From: Clostridiales bacterium
GTDB taxonomy: Bacteria; Bacillota; Clostridia; Oscillospirales; CAG-272
Assembly: GCA_022791685.1 (NCBI GenBank)
Contig: JAAVZO010000027.1
Span: 8,473 to 72,472, forward strand
DNA: 64,000 nucleotides
Direction of reading: 5' to 3'
Positions within the stretch are counted from its first letter, which is position 1. Every line of letters begins with the position of its first letter. The notes beneath the pieces were generated by a model. The model searched no databases. It was given only the letters and a program-made list of their open reading frames with translations, and was not told the DNA's origin. Shown piece by piece: positions 7,795 through 58,083 of the stretch. The position numbers and the translations under genes were made by a program.

Positions 7795-9710
7795 GTAAAC
7801 CTGAGATGAAAAATGGCGCTCCGGCGCGCAAAGTGGATTTTAAATGTCTTGGCAGAGTTGTAAAGATGCTGTTCGGATATTATCCGGTGCTCGTGCCGAT
7901 AACTATTGTCTGCATACTCTTTTCAGCAGCGGTAGCGACTATTCCGGCGATATTCATTCAGAAGATCATTGCTGTTATTGACGCATGGTATCTGAGCGGC
8001 GACTGGGCTGCGGCAAGCAAGGAAATAGTCCCGATGGTGCTCACTCTTATCGGACTTTATGCAGTTTCCATCATAGCAGTTACTGCACAGTCGCAGCTGA
8101 TGGCTTACATTACGCAGGGCTTCCTGTCGAAAATGCGCTGCACAATGTTTGACGGAATGCAGGATCTTCCGATAAAGTATTTCGATACCAACAAGCATGG
8201 CGATATTATGAGCTATTACACCAACGATATCGACACTCTGCGTCAGCTCGTTTCACAGGCGCTTCCGTCTCTTTTACAGGCGGGTACGATAGTTATCAGC
8301 GTATTTGGAATAATGCTCTGGTACAGCGTTTGGATGACTCTTGTTGTACTGCTTGGCGTATTTGCTATGATCATGGTATCAAAAAAGATAGGCGGCGGCT
8401 CGGCGAAATACTTCGTCCGTCAGCAGCGTTCTATAGGTAAGACCGAGGGCTTTGTTCAGGAAATGATGAACGGTCAGAAGGTCATTAAGGTATTCTGTCA
8501 TGAAGAGCAGAGCAAGGTAGATTTTGACAAAATAAACGACGAGCTCTACGAGGACAGCTACCGCGCTCACGCATATGCAAATATGCTCGGTCCGATCATA
8601 ATGAATATCGGTAACGTATTATATGTTGTCATCGCGACCGTTGGCGGCGTATTCCTGCTTTCGGGATTGCCGAATCTCAGTATATCGGGAATGGCGTTCA
8701 GCATAAGCATACTCGTTCCGTTCCTTAATATGACTAAGCAGTTCACCGGTAACGTAAACCAGCTTTCGCAGCAGATCAATGCCATTGTAATGGGTATGGC
8801 AGGTGCGCAGCGTATATTCTCGCTGATGGACCAGCAGCCTGAGACCGACGATGGATATGTTACGCTTGTCAATGCAAAGGTCGGCGCTGATGGCAGCATA
8901 ACCGAGACTGATGAGCATACCGGAAAATGGGCATGGAAGCATCCTCACAACGATGGTACGACAACATATACCGAACTTCGCGGCGATGTTCGCCTCAATG
9001 AGGTAGACTTCGCTTATGAAGAAGGCAAGACTGTGCTGCACGATGTTACTGTGTTTGCTGAACCCGGTCAGAAGGTAGCATTTGTTGGCGCTACCGGAGC
9101 CGGCAAAACGACGATCACAAACCTTATCAACCGCTTCTACGATATCGCTGACGGTAAGATACGCTACGACGGGATCAATATCAATAAGATAAAGAAATCT
9201 GACCTGCGTCGTTCTCTTGGTATCGTATTGCAGGAGACAAACCTGTTCACCGGTACGGTAATGGATAATATCCGTTACGGACGGCTCGACGCTACGGATG
9301 AGGATTGTATCAACGCGGCTAAGCTCGCTGGTGCTGATGACTTCATCACACGTCTGCCGGGAGGATATTCGGCTGAGCTGACTAACAACGGCGCTAACCT
9401 GTCGCAGGGACAGCGTCAGCTTATCGCGATCGCGCGTGCGGCAGTAGCTGACCCGCCGGTCATGATACTTGACGAGGCAACTTCATCTATTGATACACGT
9501 ACTGAGGCTATAGTTCAGCGTGGTATGGATAAGCTGATGGAGGGCAGAACGGTATTTGTTATCGCGCACCGCTTGTCGACTGTTATGAACTCAGATGTTA
9601 TCATGGTACTTGACCACGGACGCATTATCGAGCGCGGTAATCACGACAAGCTGATAGCCGAGAAGGGCACATATTATCAGCTTTACACTGGTGCATTTGA
9701 GCTCGAATAA
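7791..9710 (+). CDS. ABC exporter, fused permease/ATPase subunit (heterodimer partner 2)
   Basis: ATGA overlap with the upstream gene. Walker A GATGAGKTT, signature LSQGQRQL and Walker B MILDEATS. Confidence 0.9.
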   Translation: MSKPEMKNGAPARKVDFKCLGRVVKMLFGYYPVLVPITIVCILFSAAVATIPAIFIQKIIAVIDAWYLSGDWAAASKEIVPMVLTLIGLYAVSIIAVTAQSQLMAYITQGFLSKMRCTMFDGMQDLPIKYFDTNKHGDIMSYYTNDIDTLRQLVSQALPSLLQAGTIVISVFGIMLWYSVWMTLVVLLGVFAMIMVSKKIGGGSAKYFVRQQRSIGKTEGFVQEMMNGQKVIKVFCHEEQSKVDFDKINDELYEDSYRAHAYANMLGPIIMNIGNVLYVVIATVGGVFLLSGLPNLSISGMAFSISILVPFLNMTKQFTGNVNQLSQQINAIVMGMAGAQRIFSLMDQQPETDDGYVTLVNAKVGADGSITETDEHTGKWAWKHPHNDGTTTYTELRGDVRLNEVDFAYEEGKTVLHDVTVFAEPGQKVAFVGATGAGKTTITNLINRFYDIADGKIRYDGININKIKKSDLRRSLGIVLQETNLFTGTVMDNIRYGRLDATDEDCINAAKLAGADDFITRLPGGYSAELTNNGANLSQGQRQLIAIARAAVADPPVMILDEATSSIDTRTEAIVQRGMDKLMEGRTVFVIAHRLSTVMNSDVIMVLDHGRIIERGNHDKLIAEKGTYYQLYTGAFELE

Positions 9711-9874: not shown

Positions 9875-10528
9875 GTGGTGAATAAGCAGAAGATGTCACC
9901 AGTTATAGTGGCTGCGGTCGCTGCGGCAGCTATAGGATTATGTGTTGCAGCATGCAGTGCAGAGAATAAGAATGATGATATTGATATAGTTTTTGATGAG
10001 TTGACAATTGAACAAGTGTCAGATATAGAAGTGACTGAAGCGGAGAGTGATGATAAATACGATATAGCTTCCGATACGACGAAATCAGATGATACAATAA
10101 ATGTGCAAGAAACAACCAAGCCAGAGACTGAAAAATTACCAGAAACTACCCGTATACCAGAAACAACAAAAGTACCAGAAACTCAAAATATACCTGATAC
10201 TACTGCTGTAATTTTGATCAAGCGTTCTGATTCAAGCATGACGAGAGAGCGCATTTTAGAGCTTGAGAATGTTGCTGTATTCTGGGCACCGACTGGTAAA
10301 AAAATGCACCTTGATCCTGATTGTAAGTCGTTCAAGCTCGGATTCACATTTGCAGGAACACTGGAGGAGGCTAAATCTGCTCGTGATGGAGGCTGGTGTG
10401 GTATTTGTTCAAAGGGGATGACGGATGAAAAATACTTGTCAAATTATAAGGCTACAGCTGAACGTCTCGCTGACTGTTATACATATGAGGATTTCTCAAA
10501 CAAAATCCCTGCTGAAGCGTTCAAGTAA
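9875..10528 (+). CDS. Putative lipoprotein with P-E-T-T heptad repeats and a C-terminal His/Cys motif domain
   Basis: Signal peptide with lipobox VAAC. Acidic linker with tandem repeats PETEKL/PETTRI/PETTKV/PETQNI/PDTTAV. The C-terminus has H-x4-C-x28-C-x2-C (HLDPDC...CGIC). GTG start lies 7 nt after GAAAGGA. Confidence 0.6.
   Translation: MVNKQKMSPVIVAAVAAAAIGLCVAACSAENKNDDIDIVFDELTIEQVSDIEVTEAESDDKYDIASDTTKSDDTINVQETTKPETEKLPETTRIPETTKVPETQNIPDTTAVILIKRSDSSMTRERILELENVAVFWAPTGKKMHLDPDCKSFKLGFTFAGTLEEAKSARDGGWCGICSKGMTDEKYLSNYKATAERLADCYTYEDFSNKIPAEAFK
10121..10204 (+). repeat. In-frame tandem 21-nt (heptad) coding repeats
   Basis: CCAGAAAC(T/A)AC-type units are repeated about 4-5 times and encode P-E-T-x-x-[ILV]. 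Confidence 0.7.
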
Positions 10529-14029: not shown

Positions 14030-15091
14030 TCAGTTTTCCGTACTATCTAAATAATCTTTAATATATGCAGCTATTTCCAACTCAAGGCTGCGGGATTCCT
14101 TGAGTATGTCTATCAGCATAGAGCGGCGTTCGTTGTTGCTTAAGGCAAGAACCTTAGGGTCAGACCAATCATTTTTAAAACCGATCTGAGCTCCGTTTTG
14201 TGCAATGTTTTTCAGCTTTTCGCATAATTCTGCGGCTCTGGCAAGGTTTTTGTCCGCTTTGATCTCATGATACATTTTCAGAAATTTATACAAGTGAGTC
14301 CGGTTCTCAAAAAGCGCAATAAAGTGCGGAAATACTGGAGATGCAAAGTAAAACTCTTCTTTCTCTTCTTCATTCGCCTGATGGAGCTGGAAAATCCATG
14401 TATCGTAAATAGCCTGTCCGTATCCGTTGTGCACTTTGGCAAAGTCCATTTCCTTGGTAGGCATTGTTTCTGTAAGCATACGAAGACCGTTCTTGAGCGC
14501 TTCTCTGTAAGCATAATCGCGGCTGCATTGCTCGCCTTCGGGGATGAACAGGATGATTTCTTCAAAATTTCCTTCCAAAGAGGAGAATTCAGAAGGATTT
14601 TCAAAGTTAAGCGCACTGTTTATCTCATCGTTTCCTTCTTCAAATTTATGCCCAAGCAATATTTCCCCGTTATTGCGGTATCCCCAAATCAGGTAACTGA
14701 ATGGCGTACCACTTTCTATTATGTATACAGTGTTCCCTTTAAAAACGTTTTCCTTTATTACCGATATCAATTCATCCCCATGAATGGCTTGCAGCCGTTC
14801 GCAGGAAAGCCCATATATAGCGGTGCTTAAAGTGTTTGCGGGCATACAGTAAAACAGTCCAAACGCAAATCCGGTCAATACATTTTGAACCGAATACTCC
14901 ATGTCGCTGTAAACCAGTGCACCGGTATCACCGACTTTTTCAGTTTTTCCATATAAAAGTCCGAGACCAGCGTAAACTGCTGGTTTCACATTACTGAATG
15001 GCCACGCCTCACCGCTGAAGGCTTCTATTTTGCGTACTGGTCTGATAATGAACTCGCTGGTTGGTTCTGAAACTTTTTTGGAGTTTTTCAT
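14030..15091 (-). CDS. Hypothetical protein with no family recognised
   Basis: A 353-aa ORF from ATG 15091, 10 nt after GAGG (the track's TTG at 15109 is less likely). AT-rich codon usage by eye. No TM segment or signal peptide. Confidence 0.6.
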   Translation of the reverse strand: MKNSKKVSEPTSEFIIRPVRKIEAFSGEAWPFSNVKPAVYAGLGLLYGKTEKVGDTGALVYSDMEYSVQNVLTGFAFGLFYCMPANTLSTAIYGLSCERLQAIHGDELISVIKENVFKGNTVYIIESGTPFSYLIWGYRNNGEILLGHKFEEGNDEINSALNFENPSEFSSLEGNFEEIILFIPEGEQCSRDYAYREALKNGLRMLTETMPTKEMDFAKVHNGYGQAIYDTWIFQLHQANEEEKEEFYFASPVFPHFIALFENRTHLYKFLKMYHEIKADKNLARAAELCEKLKNIAQNGAQIGFKNDWSDPKVLALSNNERRSMLIDILKESRSLELEIAAYIKDYLDSTEN

Positions 15092-15188
15092 GATTGATTT
15101 ACCTCGCAAATAATATATGGGTAATACTATGCAAAACAGTATCGCATAAAATTATAATACTGCTTTGGGGTTCGACCAGTGACTAAAT

Positions 15189-15262
15189 TGGAGCGAACGG
15201 CGGGAATCGAACCCGTGCTGTCGGCTTGGGAAGCCGGAATTCTGCCATTAAATTACGTTCGC
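15189..15262 (-). tRNA. tRNA-Gly (anticodon CCC), CCA encoded
   Basis: Minus strand reads GCGAACG-TA-ATTT-AATGGCA-GAAT-T-CCGGC-TTCCCAA-GCCGA-CAGC-ACGGG-TTCGATT-CCCGC-CGTTCGC-T-CCA. The cloverleaf folds with one A/C mismatch in the T stem. Confidence 0.85.
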
Positions 15263-15532
15263 AAATTTTTATTTATGGTATTATTATACACTATTGCATA
15301 GCTTTTGTCAAGAGCTATTTTTTAAATTTGCGTTTATAATGATGTTCAGATTTTTGTACTCGCATTCGCACTGTGGCAATGATGTCTTACATCGGATAAA
15401 CTGTAGTGTGATGTCATGAGACAGAGTTGATCGAGACCGTTCAATAAAATTTGATATCTCATGTTTAAAACTTCCGCGCCGGGTAAACACTATGGTTGCA
15501 AAAAAATATAAATGCTTGGAGAGTGAATTTTT

Positions 15533-15877
15533 GTGACCGTCAAACGCGGAGATATTTATTATGCCGACTTAAGCCCCGTGATAGGCTCTGAACAGGGCGG
15601 ACTTCGTCCGGTGCTTATAGTTCAAAATGATGTCGGAAACAAATACAGTCCTACGGTGATAGCTGCGGCAATTACCAGTCAGGTCGGTAAGACTCGACTT
15701 CCTACACATATTGATGTTCTTGCCGACAGGTTCGGGCTTGCCAAGGATTCTGTAATTCTGCTTGAACAAATTCGTACTATAGATAAGAAACGGCTCAAGG
15801 AGAAAATGGGACATCTCGACGACTGCGTTATGCAGAGAGTGAACGACGCTATCGGAGTCAGCTTTGGGCTCGGCTGA
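15533..15877 (+). CDS. mazF: MazF/EndoA (PemK family) mRNA interferase toxin
   Basis: [31 protein letters not shown]...[16 protein letters not shown] closely resembles Bacillus EndoA. GTG start lies 9 nt after GGAGAG. Confidence 0.9.
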
Positions 15878-15931: not shown

Positions 15932-16042
15932 ATTCAGGTGGCCGCTTTGCATGGGCAATAGATGTGTTCGATAACTTAACTTTATTTAATTGATAGTTAT
16001 CGAACATATCTAAGTATATGCCTTCGCGACGGTCACCTGAAT
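15932..16042 (+). repeat. Copy A of the palindromic element, embedded in a 111-nt imperfect palindrome
   Basis: Outer arms ATTCAGGTGGCC (15932-15943) and GGTCACCTGAAT (16031-16042) match 11/12. Inner arms are GTTCGATAAC (15966-15975) and GTTATCGAAC (15996-16005). TTTTAT follows. Confidence 0.7.
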
Positions 16043-16068
16043 TTTATGTGAATAAATGGAGAAACCAC

Positions 16069-16097
16069 TTGAAATGCGCTTCGTTATAGTTTATAAT
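16069..16097 (+). promoter_or_regulatory. Promoter of the two-component system operon
   Basis: TTGAAA (16069-16074), a 17-nt spacer, then TATAAT (16092-16097). Confidence 0.5.
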
Positions 16098-16101
16098 ATA
16101 T

Positions 16102-16160
16102 GTAGGAAACCTGTTATATGACCTAATTTAGTTGATAGGTTATCGGACAGGTCTAATATA
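16102..16160 (+). repeat. Copy C of the palindromic element, with a degenerate left arm
   Basis: The right arm GTTATCGGACAGGTCTAATATA begins at 16139. The 39-nt block 16122-16160 matches 18504-18542 at 35/39 positions. Confidence 0.65.
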
Positions 16161-16195
16161 AAATAACAACATAACGAAAGGATATAATCCGCCTG

Positions 16196-16876
16196 ATGTA
16201 TAAGATACTTACTGTTGATGATGAAGCACGGATCCGTGAAATAATACGCAAATATGCTGAGTTTGAAGGGCACGAGGTAACTGAAGCTGCCGACGGGATG
16301 GAGGCCATTCGCCTTTGCCGTGAGAAGGATTTCGATATTATTATTATGGACATAATGATGCCAGAGCTCGATGGATTTTCTGCCTGCCGTGAAATTCGTA
16401 AATTTAAGCAGACTCCGATTATTATGCTGTCAGCTCGCGGTGAAGAGTATGACAAAATCAATGGCTTTGAACTTGGTATCGACGACTATGTGGTCAAGCC
16501 TTTCTCGCCGAAGGAGCTTATGCTGCGTATCGACGCGGTGATGAAGCGCTCGCATACTGCTGTAGTTAAGGAGAGCGTAAATGAGGTCGTCGAAATCGGG
16601 GGGCTGCGTGCTGATATTACTGCTCGTCTTGTTTATGTCGACGGCAATCGAGTTGATATGTCTCCGAAGGAATATGACCTGTTTTTCTATATGCTCAAAA
16701 ATCGCAATATCGCACTATCTCGCGAAAAGCTTATAACTGAAGTTTGGGGATATGACTTTTACGGCGACGATCGCACGCTTGATACGCATATCAAACTGCT
16801 TCGCAAGAGCCTTGGAAGTTATTCGAGACTTATCGTGACACTTCGAGGGGTAGGCTACAGATTTGAGTCTAAATAA
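16196..16876 (+). CDS. OmpR/PhoB-family response regulator
   Basis: The receiver domain has DD, D52-type (IIIMDIMMPELDG) and K (VVKPF) motifs. A C-terminal winged helix is present (LTLRGVGYRF). Confidence 0.9.
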   Translation: MYKILTVDDEARIREIIRKYAEFEGHEVTEAADGMEAIRLCREKDFDIIIMDIMMPELDGFSACREIRKFKQTPIIMLSARGEEYDKINGFELGIDDYVVKPFSPKELMLRIDAVMKRSHTAVVKESVNEVVEIGGLRADITARLVYVDGNRVDMSPKEYDLFFYMLKNRNIALSREKLITEVWGYDFYGDDRTLDTHIKLLRKSLGSYSRLIVTLRGVGYRFESK

Positions 16877-18374
16877 ACATAATAAGCCAAAGTCCAACAG
16901 AAGAATCGGAGTAAGATGGAATTTCTTCATATATATGATGTTGTTCCTTTTAATGCTGCTGGTTCTTCTTTGGACATTTCAGGTAGCGTTTTTTGAACAG
17001 ATATATACGGCTGTAAAGAAAAGTGAAATGTACCGCGCAGCTGATTTCATCGAGGACAACAGCAACCTCAATAACGAACAGATCAAAGCTGCCACCGAGC
17101 AAATCGCGAAAAATTACGACCTCTGTGTTACTTTACTTGAGGTACAGAGGTATAATGAATATATCAGCGGATTTGTTTTATCTAAGTCACATAATCGCCT
17201 CGACTGCGTTATCGACAGCATGAGTGTTAATGAACTTTTAATGTTGAGTCTTAGCGCTATACAAAACGGTGGCGACAGACTTGCGACTATGCCGCGAAAC
17301 ATTAGATATTTGAGTTATTATGTCAACGACTACCGCGGCAATCTTCCGACTGATGACAGCGGAATGGGTACTGGGATCATATATACACGCATTGTAGGGT
17401 CGGACGTGCGCAATGGTGATATTGCTATAGTGCTAAACACCACCACGTCGTCGGTCAATTCTACCGTCCGTACACTGCGTACTGAACTGCTCATTATCAG
17501 CGTAATAATGACTATTGCGGCGCTGATACTATCATTCCTGCTCGCAAAACAGGTCGCAAAGCCGATAATACGTATCAATTCTGGTGCGAAGCTGCTCGCT
17601 GAGGGAAACTATGATGTGCGCTTCAAGGTCGATGGATACCGTGAAATTACCGAACTGTCGGACACGCTCAGCTATGCGGCTCAGGAGCTGTCGAAAACCG
17701 GAGCGCTTCAGCGTGAGCTTATCGCGAACATTTCGCATGACCTGCGCACTCCGCTTACTATGATCGAAGGATACGCTGAGATGATGAGGGATATTCCGGG
17801 TGAGAATACTCCTGAGAATATGCAGATCATAATTGATGAGACTAAGCGGCTGAGCTCGCTTGTAAATGATGTGCTTGATATTTCGCGTTTGCAGTCGGGT
17901 ACACAGCAGTTGAAGCTGGAGGAGTTCAACCTTACTGAAACGATACGTGAAGTTATCGGACGTTTCTCGAAGCTCACCGAACAGGATGGCTGGGTCATCA
18001 ACTTTGATTCGAGCGAGGAGGTCATGGTGAACGCTGACCGCACTCGAATACTACAGGTGGTATATAACTTCATCAATAATGCTATCACTCACTCTGGCGC
18101 TGATAAAGTAGTCATTGTCGAGCAGCGAGTAATTATGCGCGGCAATAAGCAGGTGGTGCGAATCGAAGTCACTGACCACGGAGAGGGAATTGCGAAGGAA
18201 AATATACCGTACATCTGGGACAGATACTATAAGGTGGACAAGCTTCATAAGCGTGCTCAGACTGGCTCTGGTCTCGGACTCTCGATAGTTAAAAGCATAC
18301 TTGAACTGCACAATGCGGACTACGGAGTCGAAAGCGAGCTTGGAAAAGGAGCTACATTCTGGTTCGAGATGTAG
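16863..18374 (+). CDS. Sensor histidine kinase (2 TM, HAMP, HisKA, HATPase_c)
   Basis: H-box ISHDLRTPLT, N-box NFINNAITHS, and G-boxes DHGEGI and GSGLGLSIV. The start is uncertain; the TTG at 16863 overlaps the regulator gene. Confidence 0.85.
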   Translation: MSLNKHNKPKSNRRIGVRWNFFIYMMLFLLMLLVLLWTFQVAFFEQIYTAVKKSEMYRAADFIEDNSNLNNEQIKAATEQIAKNYDLCVTLLEVQRYNEYISGFVLSKSHNRLDCVIDSMSVNELLMLSLSAIQNGGDRLATMPRNIRYLSYYVNDYRGNLPTDDSGMGTGIIYTRIVGSDVRNGDIAIVLNTTTSSVNSTVRTLRTELLIISVIMTIAALILSFLLAKQVAKPIIRINSGAKLLAEGNYDVRFKVDGYREITELSDTLSYAAQELSKTGALQRELIANISHDLRTPLTMIEGYAEMMRDIPGENTPENMQIIIDETKRLSSLVNDVLDISRLQSGTQQLKLEEFNLTETIREVIGRFSKLTEQDGWVINFDSSEEVMVNADRTRILQVVYNFINNAITHSGADKVVIVEQRVIMRGNKQVVRIEVTDHGEGIAKENIPYIWDRYYKVDKLHKRAQTGSGLGLSIVKSILELHNADYGVESELGKGATFWFEM

Positions 18375-18433
18375 CGGCACTGAAAAAATCAGTAGAATAT
18401 GGAGTATAATTCGGTCAAAATCAAATTGCTTAC

Positions 18434-18462
18434 TTGACAATCGTTCATTGATATTGTATCAT
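18434..18462 (+). promoter_or_regulatory. Promoter of the GHL6-like hydrolase/GNAT operon
   Basis: TTGACA (18434-18439), a 17-nt spacer, then TATCAT (18457-18462). Confidence 0.5.
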
Positions 18463-18475
18463 ATAGGTATCAAAT

Positions 18476-18542
18476 AATAGACATGTTCGATAACTTCATT
18501 TAATCTAATTTAATTGAGAGGTTATCGAACAGGTCTAATATA
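18476..18542 (+). repeat. Copy B of the palindromic element
   Basis: AATAGACATGTTCGATAAC (18476-18494), a 26-nt AT-rich loop, then GTTATCGAACAGGTCTAAT (18521-18539). The arms pair at 17/19 positions. It ends 17 nt before the ATG at 18559. Confidence 0.7.
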
Positions 18543-18558
18543 TATGGGAGAGAAATAT

Positions 18559-20535
18559 ATGAAACCTTTAAAATATCGTGAGGTACACCTCGATTTTCAC
18601 ACATCTGAGTCAGTTCCGTCGGTAGGTGACAAATTCGACAAGGAGCAGTTTAAGGCAGCACTCAAAGCTGGTCATGTCGATTCTATCACTATCTTTTCAA
18701 AATGCCACCACGGCTGGGCATATCACCCGTCGACGGCTAACGAAATGCACCCGAAGCTTAATTTTGACCTGCTCGGTGCAGAGCTTGAAGCCTGCCGTGA
18801 AGCGGGAGTCAATGCGCCGGTGTATCTGTCTGCCGGATTTGATGAAAAGTACGCACGCCGTCATCCTGAAAATCTCATAAAGGGTCAGCCGAATTCAGGC
18901 GCAGATTTTCTCAATTCCGCCGGTTATCACCTGCTATGCTACAATACGCCATACCTTGATTATTTAATGGCACAAGTAGAAGAGGTTATGCAAAAGTACA
19001 ACCCAAGCGGAATATTCCTTGATATTTCCGCGCCGCGTATCTGCTACTGCCAGCACTGCCTTGAATCTATGCGTGCTAAGGGTCTCGACCCACACGATCC
19101 TGAGGATGTAAAGCGTCACTCCGATATGGTATACGCCGAATACTGCCGCCGCACTGAGGAGGTAGTCCGCAAGTATAATTTGGATACTACGATATTCCAC
19201 AACGCCGGAAATATAACTCGCGGTCGCCGCGACCATGCTGGATTTGATACACATCTCGAGCTCGAAAGTCTTCCGACCGGAGGCTGGGGATACGACCATT
19301 TCCCGATGTCTGCTGCATACTGCCGCACGCTTGGTATGGAGTTCCTTGGAATGACCGGAAAATTCCACACTACATGGGGCGAATTCGGCGGTTTCAAGCA
19401 CCCGAATGCGCTTCGCTATGAGGCTGCGCTTTCGATAGCTGAGGGGGCAAAGTGTTCTATCGGTGACCAGCTGCACCCGAATGGCGAGATGAATATGTCT
19501 ACATACAAGCTTATCGGCAAGGCATACGCTGAGGTCGAAGCAAAAGAGCCTTTTGTTCGCGGTGCAGAGCATATCGCCGATATTGCAATACTCAGCGCTG
19601 AGGCATTTTCAAATAGCCCGAACCGCAATTGCCCATATGATATGGGAGCGTCGAGAATCCTGCTCGAAGGCAAGTATCTGTTTAACTTAGTCGACCAGTA
19701 CGAGGATATTTCTAAGTACAAGCTGCTGATACTTCCTGATATCATTCGTATTGACGATGCGCTTAAAGCTAAGCTTGACGCATATGTCGCAAATGGCGGT
19801 AAGCTGCTTTGCAGTGGTGAATCCGGACTCAAGACCGATTCGGATGAATTTGCTATCGACCTTGGCGCAGTATGCGAAGGAAAGAACGAATTCTGCCCGA
19901 ACTATATGGTTCCGGAGTATGAGTCTGTCAATGGACGCACTGCGTATGTAATGTACAAGCCTGCGATGAACGTCAAGGCTGTAAACGGAAGCGTCGAAGC
20001 GCTCGTTGAGGATAGCTATTTCAACCGCTCGCCTGAGCATTTCTGCTCGCACAAGCACACGCCGAACGATCCGGGAGCTAACCATGCCGGCGCGATTTTA
20101 ACGGCAAATACTGGCTACATCGCATGGAATGCCTTCCACGATTACGCTGAAATAGGCTCGTTCCATACGAAAGAGCTCGTACTGCACATGATCGAGTCGC
20201 TGCTTGGCGATGATCGTTCGATAAGCGTAAATCTGCCAGACCGCGGAATCGTTACATATACGAAGCAAAGCGAAGAAAGCCGTTATATCGCTCACTTGCT
20301 GTTCGCTCACACAACAAAGCGCGGCAATGGCGTTGAAGTTATCGAGGATATCATTCAACTGTACGATATAAAGCTCAGCGCGGCGCTTCCGACTGCACCG
20401 AAGCGTGTGTATAAGGTGGAGTATGCTGACGGTGGACTTGTCGAAACTGAGCTCAGTTACACATATGCTGACGGAAAGGCTGTAGCTGAGGTCGGTAAGG
20501 TCGAGCTTCACGCGATGGTGGTATTTGATGTATAA
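18559..20535 (+). CDS. Putative glycoside hydrolase, GHL6 / GH42-like barrel with a beta-galactosidase trimerisation-type domain
   Basis: MKPLKYREVHLDFHTSE...CHHGWAYHP is the pattern I associate with the GHL6 family. Preferred start is ATG 18559 after GGGAGAG. Confidence 0.5.
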   Translation: MKPLKYREVHLDFHTSESVPSVGDKFDKEQFKAALKAGHVDSITIFSKCHHGWAYHPSTANEMHPKLNFDLLGAELEACREAGVNAPVYLSAGFDEKYARRHPENLIKGQPNSGADFLNSAGYHLLCYNTPYLDYLMAQVEEVMQKYNPSGIFLDISAPRICYCQHCLESMRAKGLDPHDPEDVKRHSDMVYAEYCRRTEEVVRKYNLDTTIFHNAGNITRGRRDHAGFDTHLELESLPTGGWGYDHFPMSAAYCRTLGMEFLGMTGKFHTTWGEFGGFKHPNALRYEAALSIAEGAKCSIGDQLHPNGEMNMSTYKLIGKAYAEVEAKEPFVRGAEHIADIAILSAEAFSNSPNRNCPYDMGASRILLEGKYLFNLVDQYEDISKYKLLILPDIIRIDDALKAKLDAYVANGGKLLCSGESGLKTDSDEFAIDLGAVCEGKNEFCPNYMVPEYESVNGRTAYVMYKPAMNVKAVNGSVEALVEDSYFNRSPEHFCSHKHTPNDPGANHAGAILTANTGYIAWNAFHDYAEIGSFHTKELVLHMIESLLGDDRSISVNLPDRGIVTYTKQSEESRYIAHLLFAHTTKRGNGVEVIEDIIQLYDIKLSAALPTAPKRVYKVEYADGGLVETELSYTYADGKAVAEVGKVELHAMVVFDV

Positions 20536-41099: not shown

Positions 41100-42299
41100 T
41101 TAGTGCGATATAATTTTGAAGCCTTCATCGCGCAGCGACTGCGTGATGAGCTGTACGTGTTCGTAGTTGCGGGTCTCCATCTCGATTCGGAGATAGCATC
41201 CGTTTACGCTCTCAGTCTCGCCTGCGTGCTCGTGGTGAACGCTGGTGACATTTCCACCACAGTCAGCGATTATACGCGATACGTCCTTCAGCTGACCGGG
41301 CTTGTCGATAAGCTCGATAAGCAGGTGACTGGTACGTCCCGATTTCATAAGACCGCGCTGGATCACTCTCGAAAGGCTGGTAACGTCGATGTTGCCGCCG
41401 GATACTATGCTTACAACGCGCTTTCCCTTTATCGGAAGCTTGTCGAACATAGCCGCTGCCACCGAAACTGCGCCCGCGCCCTCAGATATCATCTTCTGCT
41501 TTTCGATAAGCGCAAGTATAGCGGTAGATATCTCATCGTCACTGACGAGAGCGATGTCGTCAACGTATTTGCTGACTAAATCGAACGTATTCTCGCCCGG
41601 CTGCTTTACTGCGATACCATCGGCGATAGTAGCGACTGAATCAAGGCATTCTATCTGGTTATCACGAATCGAGTTAAGCATACTCGGTGCGCCTGCCGAC
41701 TGAACGCCGTAGACTTTGATCGAAGGTCTAATTGCTTTGACTGTATATGCGATACCTGAAATAAGTCCGCCGCCGCCGACTGGAACTATTATTGCGTCGA
41801 TGTTATCGAGGTTGTTAATGACTTCAAGTGCTATAGTGCCCTGACCGGCAATGACATTTTCGTCGTCGAACGGGTGAACGAAGGTATAACCTTCACTGTC
41901 TCTAAGCTCGAGAGCCTTCTTGTAAGCGTCGTCGTAGCAGCCCTTTACAAGGCAGACATCCGCGCCGTATCCCTTTGTCGCTTCTACCTTTGAAATTGGG
42001 GCGCTGTCGGGTAGACAAATCAGCGATTTGATCCCATTTTTCGAAGCGGCGAGCGCAACACCCTGCGCATGATTTCCGGCTGAGCAGGCGATAACTCCGC
42101 GTGCTTTTTCCTCATCGGAGAGCATGGACATTTTGTATCCAGCGCCTCTTACCTTAAATGAACCGGTTATTTGCAGGTTTTCGGGCTTCAGATAAAGCTC
42201 ACAGTCGGGAGCGATTCCGGCTGCACGCACGAGAGCGGTTTCGCGGATTATATTGCGAAGCACGACCGAAGCGTTAAAAACCTTATCCAATGTAAGCAT
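41100..42299 (-). CDS. ilvA: Threonine ammonia-lyase (biosynthetic type, single ACT-like C-terminal domain)
   Basis: The PLP site is LQITGSFKVRGA, with the GGGGLISG glycine loop. 399 aa. Confidence 0.9.
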   Translation of the reverse strand: MLTLDKVFNASVVLRNIIRETALVRAAGIAPDCELYLKPENLQITGSFKVRGAGYKMSMLSDEEKARGVIACSAGNHAQGVALAASKNGIKSLICLPDSAPISKVEATKGYGADVCLVKGCYDDAYKKALELRDSEGYTFVHPFDDENVIAGQGTIALEVINNLDNIDAIIVPVGGGGLISGIAYTVKAIRPSIKVYGVQSAGAPSMLNSIRDNQIECLDSVATIADGIAVKQPGENTFDLVSKYVDDIALVSDDEISTAILALIEKQKMISEGAGAVSVAAAMFDKLPIKGKRVVSIVSGGNIDVTSLSRVIQRGLMKSGRTSHLLIELIDKPGQLKDVSRIIADCGGNVTSVHHEHAGETESVNGCYLRIEMETRNYEHVQLITQSLRDEGFKIISH

Positions 42300-42329: not shown

Positions 42330-42595
42330 AAAATACCGTCTCAAAGAATTTCTTTGAGACGGGTGCAATTATCACACTCGTGGTACCACTCAAATTGCAG
42401 TCAAGCAACTGCCTCTCTGTAGGATCAAACAATCCCATGCTTTTACGCAGCGTCACGAAAAGCCCTACTATAGTTTCAAGCTTTCAGCTCAGAAGTGAGA
42501 GGTCTTTGAAAAGCTCTATACCGATTCACACCAACCATCGGCTCTCTGAAATATCCCTGTTTCTGACCGTCTTCGTCACAGCTTTTAAATCTTTC
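42330..42595 (-). promoter_or_regulatory. T-box riboswitch leader, probable Leu (CUC) specifier
   Basis: Minus strand carries an AGAGAG/GGTTGGTG stem I motif. The specifier context is GACCT-CUC-AC (CUC = 42499-42497). The T-box sequence AATTTGAGTGGTACCACGAG spans 42397-42378. The terminator CCGTCTCAAAG/CTTTGAGACGG (42362-42336) is followed by TATTTTTA. Confidence 0.8.
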
Positions 42596-42600
42596 AATAC

Positions 42601-42629
42601 ATTATAATACAAAAACGCGTTTTTGTCAA
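42601..42629 (-). promoter_or_regulatory. Consensus promoter of the ilv-leu operon
   Basis: Minus strand reads TTGACA (42629-42624), a 17-nt spacer, then TATAAT (42606-42601). Confidence 0.65.
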
Positions 42630-42649
42630 GTGGTTTCACAAAAAGTTAA

Positions 42650-42685
42650 TAATAAATTCAGCCAGCATATATTTAACGCTGGCTG
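42650..42685 (-). terminator. Terminator of the sigma-fusion gene
   Basis: CAGCCAGC (42659-42666) pairs with GCTGGCTG (42678-42685). On the minus strand AATTTATTATT follows. Confidence 0.65.
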
Positions 42686-57263: not shown

Positions 57264-57323
57264 AATCTATATAATTCCTTTCAAAAGGTTTGGATATTAT
57301 AAAGCTCAGAGTGCATTATGCGT

Positions 57324-57354
57324 GCTCGATAACATAGGTTATCGAACAAGTCTA
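57324..57354 (-). repeat. Copy D of the palindromic element, intercistronic between fabG and fabF
   Basis: Minus strand reads TAGACTTGTTCGATAAC-CTAT-GTTATCGAGC, with 9/10 stem pairs and a 4-nt loop. It starts directly after the fabG TGA (57357-57355). Its left arm matches copy B at 16/17 positions. Confidence 0.65.
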
Positions 57355-58083
57355 TCATATTGCAAGCCCGCCGTCAATGCGAATTACTTCTCCGGTGATG
57401 TAATCGGCTGTCGCTAAGAACAATGCCAGCGACGCGACTTCATCCGGATTGCCCATGCGTCCGAGCGGTATCTTTGAGGTTACGGCTTCATCATTGGCGA
57501 ACTTTTCGGTCATATCGGTTACGATAAATCCGGGGGCGATTGCATTTATGCAGATACCGCGTCCTGCAAGTTCACGTGCGGCAGATTTAGTCATGCCGAT
57601 TAGTCCTGCCTTTGAAGCGGAGTAGTTCACCTGACCGGGATTGCCGATAATTCCGGCAATAGAGCTCAAATTGATCACCTTTCCGCTGCGCTGCTTTACA
57701 AGGAGAGGACATACGCGACGCATCATGTTGTATGCGCCTTTGAGGTTGATATTTATAACATCGTCGAAGTCGGTTTCCTTCATCATTACAAGCAGCTTGT
57801 CGCGAGTGATACCGGCGTTGTTTACAAGAATATTTACAGCGCCAAAGTCAGCGAGCACCTCGCCGATTGTCTTATCGACTTCTTCGTAATTTTCAACATG
57901 GCACTGATAAGCCTTAGCGTGTCCGCCTTCAGCTTCGATTTCGGCAACTACCGCGTCAGCGCTTGCCGAATTGCTTGAATAAAGAATGGCGACGTTAGCG
58001 CCTTCCTTTGCGAACCGAACCGCTATTGCACGTCCGATTCCGCGGGAGCCGCCAGTAACGACGGCGGTCTTTCCGGTCAGCAT
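57355..58083 (-). CDS. fabG: 3-oxoacyl-ACP reductase
   Basis: SDR motifs TGGSRGIG, NNAG and YxxxK (YSASK). 242 aa. Confidence 0.93.
   Translation of the reverse strand: MLTGKTAVVTGGSRGIGRAIAVRFAKEGANVAILYSSNSASADAVVAEIEAEGGHAKAYQCHVENYEEVDKTIGEVLADFGAVNILVNNAGITRDKLLVMMKETDFDDVININLKGAYNMMRRVCPLLVKQRSGKVINLSSIAGIIGNPGQVNYSASKAGLIGMTKSAARELAGRGICINAIAPGFIVTDMTEKFANDEAVTSKIPLGRMGNPDEVASLALFLATADYITGEVIRIDGGLAI

Follow-up and report, generated by a model that had tools for sequence, protein, structure and literature searches.

The 64,000-nt stretch of Clostridiales bacterium contig JAAVZO010000027.1 analyzed here (the window; positions 8,473 to 72,472 of the forward strand) carries two near-identical 39-nt blocks, at 16122-16160 and 18504-18542, in the 5′ leaders of a two-component system operon and of the adjacent glycoside hydrolase operon. 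Sequence comparisons suggest that each block is probably the 3′ half of a separate copy of a short, palindromic, non-coding repeat that inserted in a lineage-specific manner and is similar to repetitive extragenic palindromic (REP) sequences and to MITEs (miniature inverted-repeat transposable elements). The element is most likely a selfish repeat rather than a shared control switch, and the 35/39 identity of the blocks, which direct comparison bears out, reflects common descent of repeat copies and not a shared regulatory site. An earlier reading of the same DNA by a model working from the letters alone (the original prediction) had drawn attention to the blocks; its observations are confirmed except for the number of copies, and its interpretation is partly supported.

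A family of four palindromic repeats

Each 39-nt block consists of the spacer-proximal part and the 3′ arm of a palindromic element of 60 to 70 nt. The general build is a pair of inverted arms of about 19 to 24 nt, with a consensus of roughly ATAWTAGACNTGTTCGATAAC, around an AT-rich spacer of 4 to 26 nt, with the copies spanning 45 to 70 nt in total. The arms are 88 to 94% complementary, giving the element the terminal inverted repeats and the short, non-coding build typical of MITEs, and the presence of four intergenic hairpin copies in 64 kb gives the short, imperfect, multi-copy, and extragenic palindrome expected of REP sequences and of REP doublets forming hairpins (REPINs). A repeat finder extends the pair of blocks to 45 nt at 87% identity (family D2). 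The 22-mer GTTATCGRACAGGTCTAATATA has four matches in the window at three or fewer mismatches, compared with 0 in 100 dinucleotide shuffles, and the palindrome GTTCGATAAC-N-GTTATCGAAC is present at 15966-16005 and 18485-18530, with 0 occurrences expected. A profile built from the four copies, designated A to D, recovers only those four in the window, with E values from 4e-10 to 5e-20 and matches at 15955-16020 (A), 16096-16161 (C), 18476-18543 (B), and 57313-57360 (D). The copies are as follows.

15955..16020, plus strand: copy A, 3′ of the PemK toxin gene and 5′ of the response-regulator promoter; profile E 2.6e-15
16096..16161, plus strand: copy C, between the response-regulator promoter and ribosome-binding site; family D2; profile E 3e-17
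18474..18543, plus strand: copy B, between the GHL6 hydrolase promoter and ribosome-binding site; profile E 5e-20
57313..57360, plus strand: copy D, between fabG and fabF in a minus-strand fab operon; family D2; profile E 4e-10

Copies A and B are the best preserved. Copy B has the 5′ arm ATAATAGACATGTTCGATAACTTC, an AT-rich spacer of 20 to 26 nt, and the 3′ arm GAGGTTATCGAACAGGTCTAATAT; the 17/19-bp hairpin first described for it is correct for the arm quoted, and the repeat finder gives arms of 24 nt that are 88% complementary (hairpin I15). Its predicted RNA fold is −26.5 kcal/mol (z −7.8). Copy A is a full element (−25.4 kcal/mol, z −6.9), with a spacer of 18 to 20 nt homologous to that of copy B and 83% identity to it (D15). 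In copy C the core of the 5′ arm is mutated (CCTGTTATATGACCTA replacing CCTGTCCGATAACCTA) and the 3′ half is intact; the arm is degenerate, as predicted, yet the RNA is still predicted to fold (−18.1 kcal/mol, z −3.4). The arms of copy D, one of which is degenerate, flank a spacer of 4 nt, and this copy begins directly past the fabG stop codon. The spacing between the 10-mer cores is 4 nt in copy D, 20 nt in copy A, and 26 nt in copy B, and is undefined in copy C with its degenerate 5′ core. The claim that homology extends into the loops, indicating shared ancestry, is upheld by the alignment of copies A, B, and C, which shows that their spacers are homologous.

Copies A, B, and C have the same orientation as their neighbouring genes. 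All copies have TA at both ends, itself part of the palindrome. Copy A lies in a hairpin loop, and copies B, C, and D lie in ATAT-rich sequence; these four sites suggest no firmer target rule than that. The remaining long hairpins in the window are unique, short-looped, and terminator-like. No T-run follows any of copies A to D, and a terminator scan calls none of them. Logan contigs L119 and L138 (run SRR11195284), which were assembled separately, match the window at 100% identity in copies A and C, most of B, and D, and this excludes an assembly artefact.

The original prediction counted five copies, of which the profile supports four. The candidate fifth copy (copy E, GTTATCGAA-N13-TTCGATAAC at 12-43) was rejected, as its arms are in swapped order with similarity over only 9 to 10 nt; it has profile E values of 10 to 16 and a weak fold (z −2.5).

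Insertion into conserved promoter regions

The locus has the gene order PemK toxin, response regulator, histidine kinase, GHL6 hydrolase, and GNAT acetyltransferase, and its main features are listed below, with promoter scores given as matches to the sigma-70 consensus out of 12.

16069..16097, plus strand: sigma-A-type promoter of the two-component operon, TTGAAA-17-TATAAT, 11/12
16196..16876, plus strand: OmpR-type response regulator gene with copy C in its 5′ leader (Pfam Response_reg and Trans_reg_C)
16935..18374, plus strand: HAMP/HisKA/HATPase histidine kinase gene (Pfam); the open reading frame (ORF) is open from 16863
18434..18462, plus strand: sigma-A-type promoter of the GHL6 hydrolase/GNAT operon, TTGACA-17-TATCAT, 11/12
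18559..20535, plus strand: GHL6-family glycoside hydrolase gene with copy B in its 5′ leader (Pfam GHL6 and Glyco_hydro_42M)

Both blocks were correctly placed downstream of independent sigma-A promoters, and their ends do fall 36 nt and 17 nt before the start codons (ATGs at 16196 and 18559, respectively). The same gene order is found in three relatives, L122, L123, and L126, whose kinases are 75, 70, and 62% identical to that of the window. In all three, both promoters align base for base with conserved −35 and −10 boxes, the regulator promoter together with the upstream motif CTGAATTTTATGTGAATAAAT and the hydrolase promoter as TTGACW-17-TATYAT, and the palindromic element is absent from the sites of copies B and C. 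The window is longer at exactly these places: its regulator leader exceeds those of L122 and L126 by 56 nt (copy C), and its hydrolase leader exceeds those of the relatives by about 60 nt (copy B). Because they are conserved in relatives that lack the element, both promoters pre-date it.

The other two copies show the same pattern. Copy A is absent from the orthologous site downstream of pemK in L122, L123, and L126, where a plain hairpin stands just before the motif CTGAATTTT; in the window this hairpin is split by extra sequence that includes copy A. Copy D has no counterpart in L139/L140 (FabF 85% identical), where fabG and fabF are separated by 65 unrelated nt compared with 91 nt in the window, and conservation of the FabG C terminus, IDGGLAI*, extends right to the base at which copy D begins. 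Four orthologous sites thus lack the element between conserved flanks, the presence/absence polymorphism of a mobile repeat. No arm at one or fewer mismatches is present in the intergenic regions of the relatives, and the hairpin TGTTC-N6...reverse complement occurs 0 times in about 72 kb of their distinct DNA. Since that DNA has no copies and the 64 kb of the window has four, gain in the lineage of the window is the parsimonious reading. A generic selfish repeat, one of the options originally raised, is the reading favored.

We propose that the repeat multiplied in the host lineage and reached at least four intergenic sites, with copies B and C each entering a leader whose conserved promoter was already in place, a few bases 3′ of the −10 box. 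Spread could have occurred through recognition of the arms, or of their hairpin, by a transposase acting in trans, as for MITEs or REP/REPIN sequences; recognition in trans is proposed because the arms are long and conserved and the spacer is free to vary. Transcription start sites are predicted about 7 nt past the −10 boxes, near 16104 and 18469, and the stems (19 to 24 bp with 1 to 3 mismatches) begin about 5 to 9 nt after them. From this geometry, both operons would be read through the element and give mRNAs with a stable hairpin (about −18 to −26 kcal/mol) near the 5′ end. The Shine-Dalgarno sequences GAAAGGA and GGGAGAG fall outside the stems, so that the stem-loop would leave the ribosome-binding sites unsequestered. 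A duplex of 19 to 24 bp is a substrate for RNase III, and such a 5′ stem could either be offered to this enzyme or protect the mRNA from 5′-end-dependent decay. We consider the 5′ stem-loop a likely side effect of insertion.

The case is a warning for annotation: when a regulator and the operon beside it share a striking upstream motif, that motif can be a recent repeat insertion rather than the signature of a regulon, and a comparison of three genomes sufficed to tell the two apart here. Uncultured gut Clostridia, in which such elements are poorly catalogued, also gain a family of small palindromic repeats, and copies B and C provide two natural cases of a repeat situated exactly between promoter and ribosome-binding site, suited to testing how inserted hairpins influence mRNA fate.

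Search for a mobilizing enzyme

Several points weigh against a mobile repeat. Neither in the window nor among the loci fetched was a transposase, parent insertion sequence (IS), or REP-associated tyrosine transposase (RAYT) that carries the arms found, and no unambiguous target-site duplication is readable, as the terminal TA belongs to the palindrome. The relatives compared, none of them a closely related strain, are so diverged that the empty sites cannot be placed to the base. Copy number and placement relative to genes rest on 64 kb of the host genome. Of the four copies, three are within 2.6 kb around one two-component system, and copies B and C have the same position relative to their promoters; this clustering and shared position could be due to exaptation under selection instead of chance or a preference for certain targets.

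Searches with tblastn found no Y1_Tnp genes in the window or in the loci of the relatives, and neither there nor in the other loci fetched is a gene bordered by unpaired arms. Across 118 loci there is no recurrent neighbouring transposase, with only common paralogues and Y1_Tnp genes present. The latter are in seven Treponema loci and are bracketed by a different inverted repeat, CTAAACTTGACCCA / TGGGTCAAGTTTAG, and not by the palindrome studied here; a RAYT link was dropped for this reason. The genes are as follows.

L033 4114-4707; L040 3358-3882; L046 5-490; L103 2496-2846; ends of L047, L052, and L064: IS200-like multi-copy Y1_Tnp genes

We note that the L040 Y1_Tnp retains the HUH (HIHFLI) and YIAENP motifs, and that in the others the HUH is degenerate (RLTFYIKP) and the C terminus truncated. 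REP/REPIN-RAYT systems have a conserved 5′ tetranucleotide (GTAG-type) beside the stem that serves as the cleavage site; the stems of the window element lack any such conserved unpaired tetranucleotide, GTAG-type or otherwise, at their foot, and the flanking ATA/TAAT belongs to the palindrome.

Alternative explanations

An explanation that starts from the same insertions is that copies B and C are now kept as cis-acting RNA, with the 5′ stem-loop setting mRNA half-life or RNase III processing and giving the two operons a common post-transcriptional input. We regard this exaptation as possible but unlikely. The geometry is right, as the original prediction had anticipated in suggesting a 5′ mRNA stem-loop: both hairpins lie a few nucleotides past starts predicted from the −10 boxes, their stems are of 19 to 24 bp with 1 to 3 mismatches, and B and C are the most similar pair of copies and are both oriented with transcription. 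There is also a precedent in the Correia elements of Neisseria, which have the same placement, undergo cleavage or protection by RNase III, and alter adjacent gene expression (PMC2649163). However, much of the 5′ arm core is gone from copy C, a poor fit to strong selection for the stem, copy A is outside any leader and copy D is in an operon spacer, and the relatives do without the element. The stem-loop is best seen as a consequence of an inserted selfish repeat.

It is improbable that the element acts as a mobile promoter whose outward-reading activity drives or boosts the downstream genes. Promoter-like hexamers with the 16-nt spacing originally reported are indeed present inside the blocks (TTGAKA-16-TAATAT at 16132-16159 and 18514-18541), with TTGAKA in the spacer and TAATAT at the junction of arm and flank, and Correia elements can create promoters at their ends (PMC2649163). 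These hexamers match at only 9/12 positions, however, the same as several hits within coding sequences in the same scan; copy A lacks a usable −10 and copy D a −35, transcription from copy B would start at about 18548, within the Shine-Dalgarno GGGAGAG, and both genes already have conserved 11/12 promoters. Of the earlier suggestion of a REP/MITE-like element carrying promoter activity, the repeat is thus the supported part and the promoter the weak one.

The original prediction also raised the idea of a shared operator, in which one regulator, either the adjacent OmpR-type protein or another, binds the block and couples autoregulation of the two-component system to the hydrolase operon. The near-identical block has the same location in both operons, between promoter and ribosome-binding site, its 3′ arm is placed where a roadblock repressor would act, and it contains CTAAT twice, 30 nt apart. 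Nonetheless, the block is missing from both sites in relatives whose gene order and promoters are the same, so the regulon wiring does not need it, and the arm spacing of 4 to 26 nt is ill suited to a dimeric operator, for which fixed spacing is expected. The remaining copies are 3′ of pemK and within the fab operon. OmpR-family regulators bind direct repeats, and a better candidate than the block is conserved nearby: a TGAAT-N6-TGAAT direct repeat at 16038-16054, within CTGAATTTTATGTGAATAAAT (16037-16057) just upstream of the regulator −35 and kept in L122 and L123, which is likely an OmpR-type autoregulatory site. A shared operator is therefore very unlikely, slightly more so even than a mobile promoter.

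Chance palindromes, or independent terminator-like hairpins sharing a 10-mer, would suit the isolated single matches to the 10-mer palindrome scattered in unrelated phyla (these have unrelated flanks and look like ordinary terminators, with about 17 expected in 596 Gb by our own estimate), but as an account of the window copies this is already refuted by the identity and profile statistics, as the copies share from 35/39 positions to 45 to 66 nt including spacers, 0 are expected in shuffles, and none has a T-run.

Occurrence in other genomes

The inserted repeat has relatives beyond the window. A genome-collection scan of species representatives with the 10-mer palindrome is dominated, among the matches listed, by metagenome-assembled genomes (MAGs) of termite-gut Treponema. 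The window element has in common with this high-copy Treponema repeat an arm of 15 to 19 nt, GACTTGTTCGATAACC; the shared core, GACTTGTTCGATAACC / GGTTATCGAACAAGTC(Y)AAT(AT), reaches 5 to 9 nt beyond the 10-mer imposed by the search, as illustrated by ...GTTATCGAACAAGTCTAATATAAC in L008 and ...GTTATCGAACAGGTCTAATATA in copy B. The Treponema repeat has the form ATTGGACTTGTTCGATAACC-(4 to 7 nt)-GGTTATCGAACAAGTCYAAT, is intergenic (30 tandem, 15 convergent, and 8 divergent contexts), and has inner-stem variants with matched changes on both arms (GATAAC, GAGAAC, AAGAAC, GGAAAC, and AAAAAC). A further single copy is in L030, the contig of an Acutalibacteraceae fecal MAG, at 715-775 (ACAGCTGTTCGATAACC...GGTTATCGAACATACTGT), between two tandem minus-strand genes and with a spacer homologous to that of copy A.

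The arm shared with Treponema points either to shared descent through horizontal transfer or to a similar protein that recognizes it, and hints at a common mobilizing or binding protein that could be sought. A more far-reaching proposal, which we offer as doubtful speculation, is that the arm ATTAGACNTGTTCGATAACC is the recognition hairpin of a trans-acting enzyme common to gut Clostridia (Acutalibacteraceae-like) and termite-gut Treponema, a REPIN- or MITE-like system of a new type spread horizontally across phyla, with copies B and C co-opted as a leader stem-loop that would couple the stability of the two-component and hydrolase mRNAs.

We note that many of the Treponema repeats are composite, with GGACTTGTTCGATAACC-N-GGTTATCGAACAAGTC followed by a terminator-like GCAAAATGCNNNGCATTTTGC with a T-run and then by the hairpin GAATTTGTTCAAAAAC-TGAA-GTTTTTGAACAACTC. 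Examples are L002 4660-4779 and L103 2230-2345, and there are about 80 more among L001 to L118, with more than 40 from Cc175_bin63. The composite is often less than 100 nt from contig ends and so breaks k=119 assemblies.

Searches of other collections gave few matches. BLAST of copy B against 72,556 plasmids returned no meaningful match, a scan of viral contigs gave two isolated matches with unrelated flanks, and a scan of Joint Genome Institute metagenomes (spacers of 8 to 26 nt) gave nine matches, none of the window type. With Rfam 15 at gathering score the window gives only a T-box and a tRNA, and a permissive search adds only sub-threshold matches to microRNA-precursor hairpins. A full-text literature search for the arm 10-mers found unrelated primers only, and the statement that the motif is not a described one holds against both Rfam and this search. 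Binding sites for LexA (Cheo), NagR/DasR (dre), Spo0A, and DnaA, as well as cre and ribonucleic antiterminator (RAT) sites and the IS5 end, were considered, and the arm is not known to match any of them in sequence or arrangement.

Comparison with known repeat families

This kind of element is already well known, as in REP/REPIN sequences and the pneumococcal repeats, and it is this particular repeat that is new. Its assignment to the REP-RAYT class or to MITEs proper cannot be asserted, given that the loci searched hold no cognate enzyme and that a GTAG-type foot is absent. The element resembles the REP/REPIN-RAYT systems in being a short extragenic palindrome with conserved arms and a free spacer, hairpin forming, multi-copy, and lineage specific (PMC2817692, PMC3116915, PMC3337134), and shares with REPINs the arrangement of two inverted units around a spacer. 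It differs in having no RAYT gene beside any copy and no GTAG-type 5′ tetranucleotide. REP and REPIN sequences are described mostly in Proteobacteria, whereas this element is in Clostridia, and REP sequences are usually at the 3′ ends of genes, in contrast to the two window copies in 5′ leaders.

The Correia repeat enclosed elements (CREEs), MITEs of Neisseria, are likewise small, non-autonomous inverted repeats that are often between promoter and gene (PMC2649163, PMC2229807, PMC10969869). They too are co-transcribed, with a long duplex that RNase III can cleave, ends that can form −10-like boxes, and TA at both ends; formation of promoters at their ends and cleavage or protection by RNase III are documented (PMC2649163; reviewed in PMC2229807 and PMC10969869). 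CREEs are larger, however (100 to 155 bp, compared with 45 to 70 nt), with 26-bp repeats and an integration host factor site, and the window element has only weak promoter-like hexamers and a TA duplication that is not provable. No sequence similarity is known between the Correia repeat and the window element, and the likeness is functional and positional only.

Also comparable are the repeat units of pneumococcus (RUP), BOX elements, and Streptococcus pneumoniae rho-independent terminator-like elements (SPRITEs), small interspersed hairpin-forming intergenic repeats in a Firmicute that are transcribed with their neighbours (PMC3049150). Their sequences are unrelated to the window element and their structure is larger and modular. 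RUP is linked to IS630-Spn1, whereas the window element has no known parent.

The position of copies B and C also recalls the stem-loops of the ompA leader of Escherichia coli and the ermC and aprE leaders of Bacillus subtilis, which stabilize mRNA by slowing 5′-end-dependent decay. As in those leaders, a stable hairpin would lie a few nucleotides from the mRNA 5′ end with an unobstructed ribosome-binding site downstream. Those stem-loops are single-locus and conserved, whereas here the hairpin belongs to a recently inserted repeat that is absent in relatives, and any effect on stability is conjectural.

The Treponema repeat shares sequence with the window element, having the same arm core over 15 to 19 nt in an intergenic, hairpin-forming repeat; we found no published description of it. 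It belongs to another phylum, its spacers of 4 to 7 nt (some 28 nt) are unrelated to those in the window, and in most cases a GCAAAATGC...GCATTTTGC-T-run terminator is fused to it, along with a second hairpin.

Other features of the locus and window

The leaders of the relatives have features of their own. The regulator leader of L123 (9090-9216) exceeds those of L122 and L126 by about 150 nt and contains a hairpin, CGCCG...CGGCG, followed by an A/T run; we read this extra sequence as a different, independent insertion or a putative attenuator-like structure at the same place. Its weak resemblance to copy C in alignment was judged to be chance AT-rich similarity around an unrelated GC hairpin. 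In L122 (11490-11525) and L126 (11470-11505) a palindrome, ATCGGC-TTGAC...-GCCGAT, spans the −35 and spacer of the hydrolase promoter and looks operator-like; it is not preserved at window positions 18425-18460 or in L123.

The kinase start at ATG 16935 fits a 479-aa database protein (P0001) that is 100% identical. Just 5′ of the two-component system is a PemK/MazF-type toxin gene (15533-15877), which is kept in all four genomes. The pemK regions compared were 15263-15877 in the window, 8228-9096 in L122, 8187-8934 in L123, and 8362-9101 in L126; there is no antitoxin-sized ORF in the 270 nt before the window pemK, and no gene is called in the 390 to 525 nt upstream in the relatives. PemK could be an orphan toxin or be paired with a very small or an RNA antitoxin. 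A tRNA gene (15192-15262, minus strand) lies between the ORF at 14030-15109 and the pemK region.

Elsewhere in the window, a stretch with 72% similarity to the CTGAATTTTATGTGAATAAAT region (42626-42661, minus strand; I1) precedes a T-box leader at 42352-42588 (minus strand, 108.9 bits), which is upstream of a minus-strand run of genes starting at 42299. Imperfect tandem repeats of 18/36 nt (CCAGAAAC...) at 10121-10210, within the ORF at 9875-10528, suggest a proline/glutamate/threonine-rich linker of a probable surface protein.

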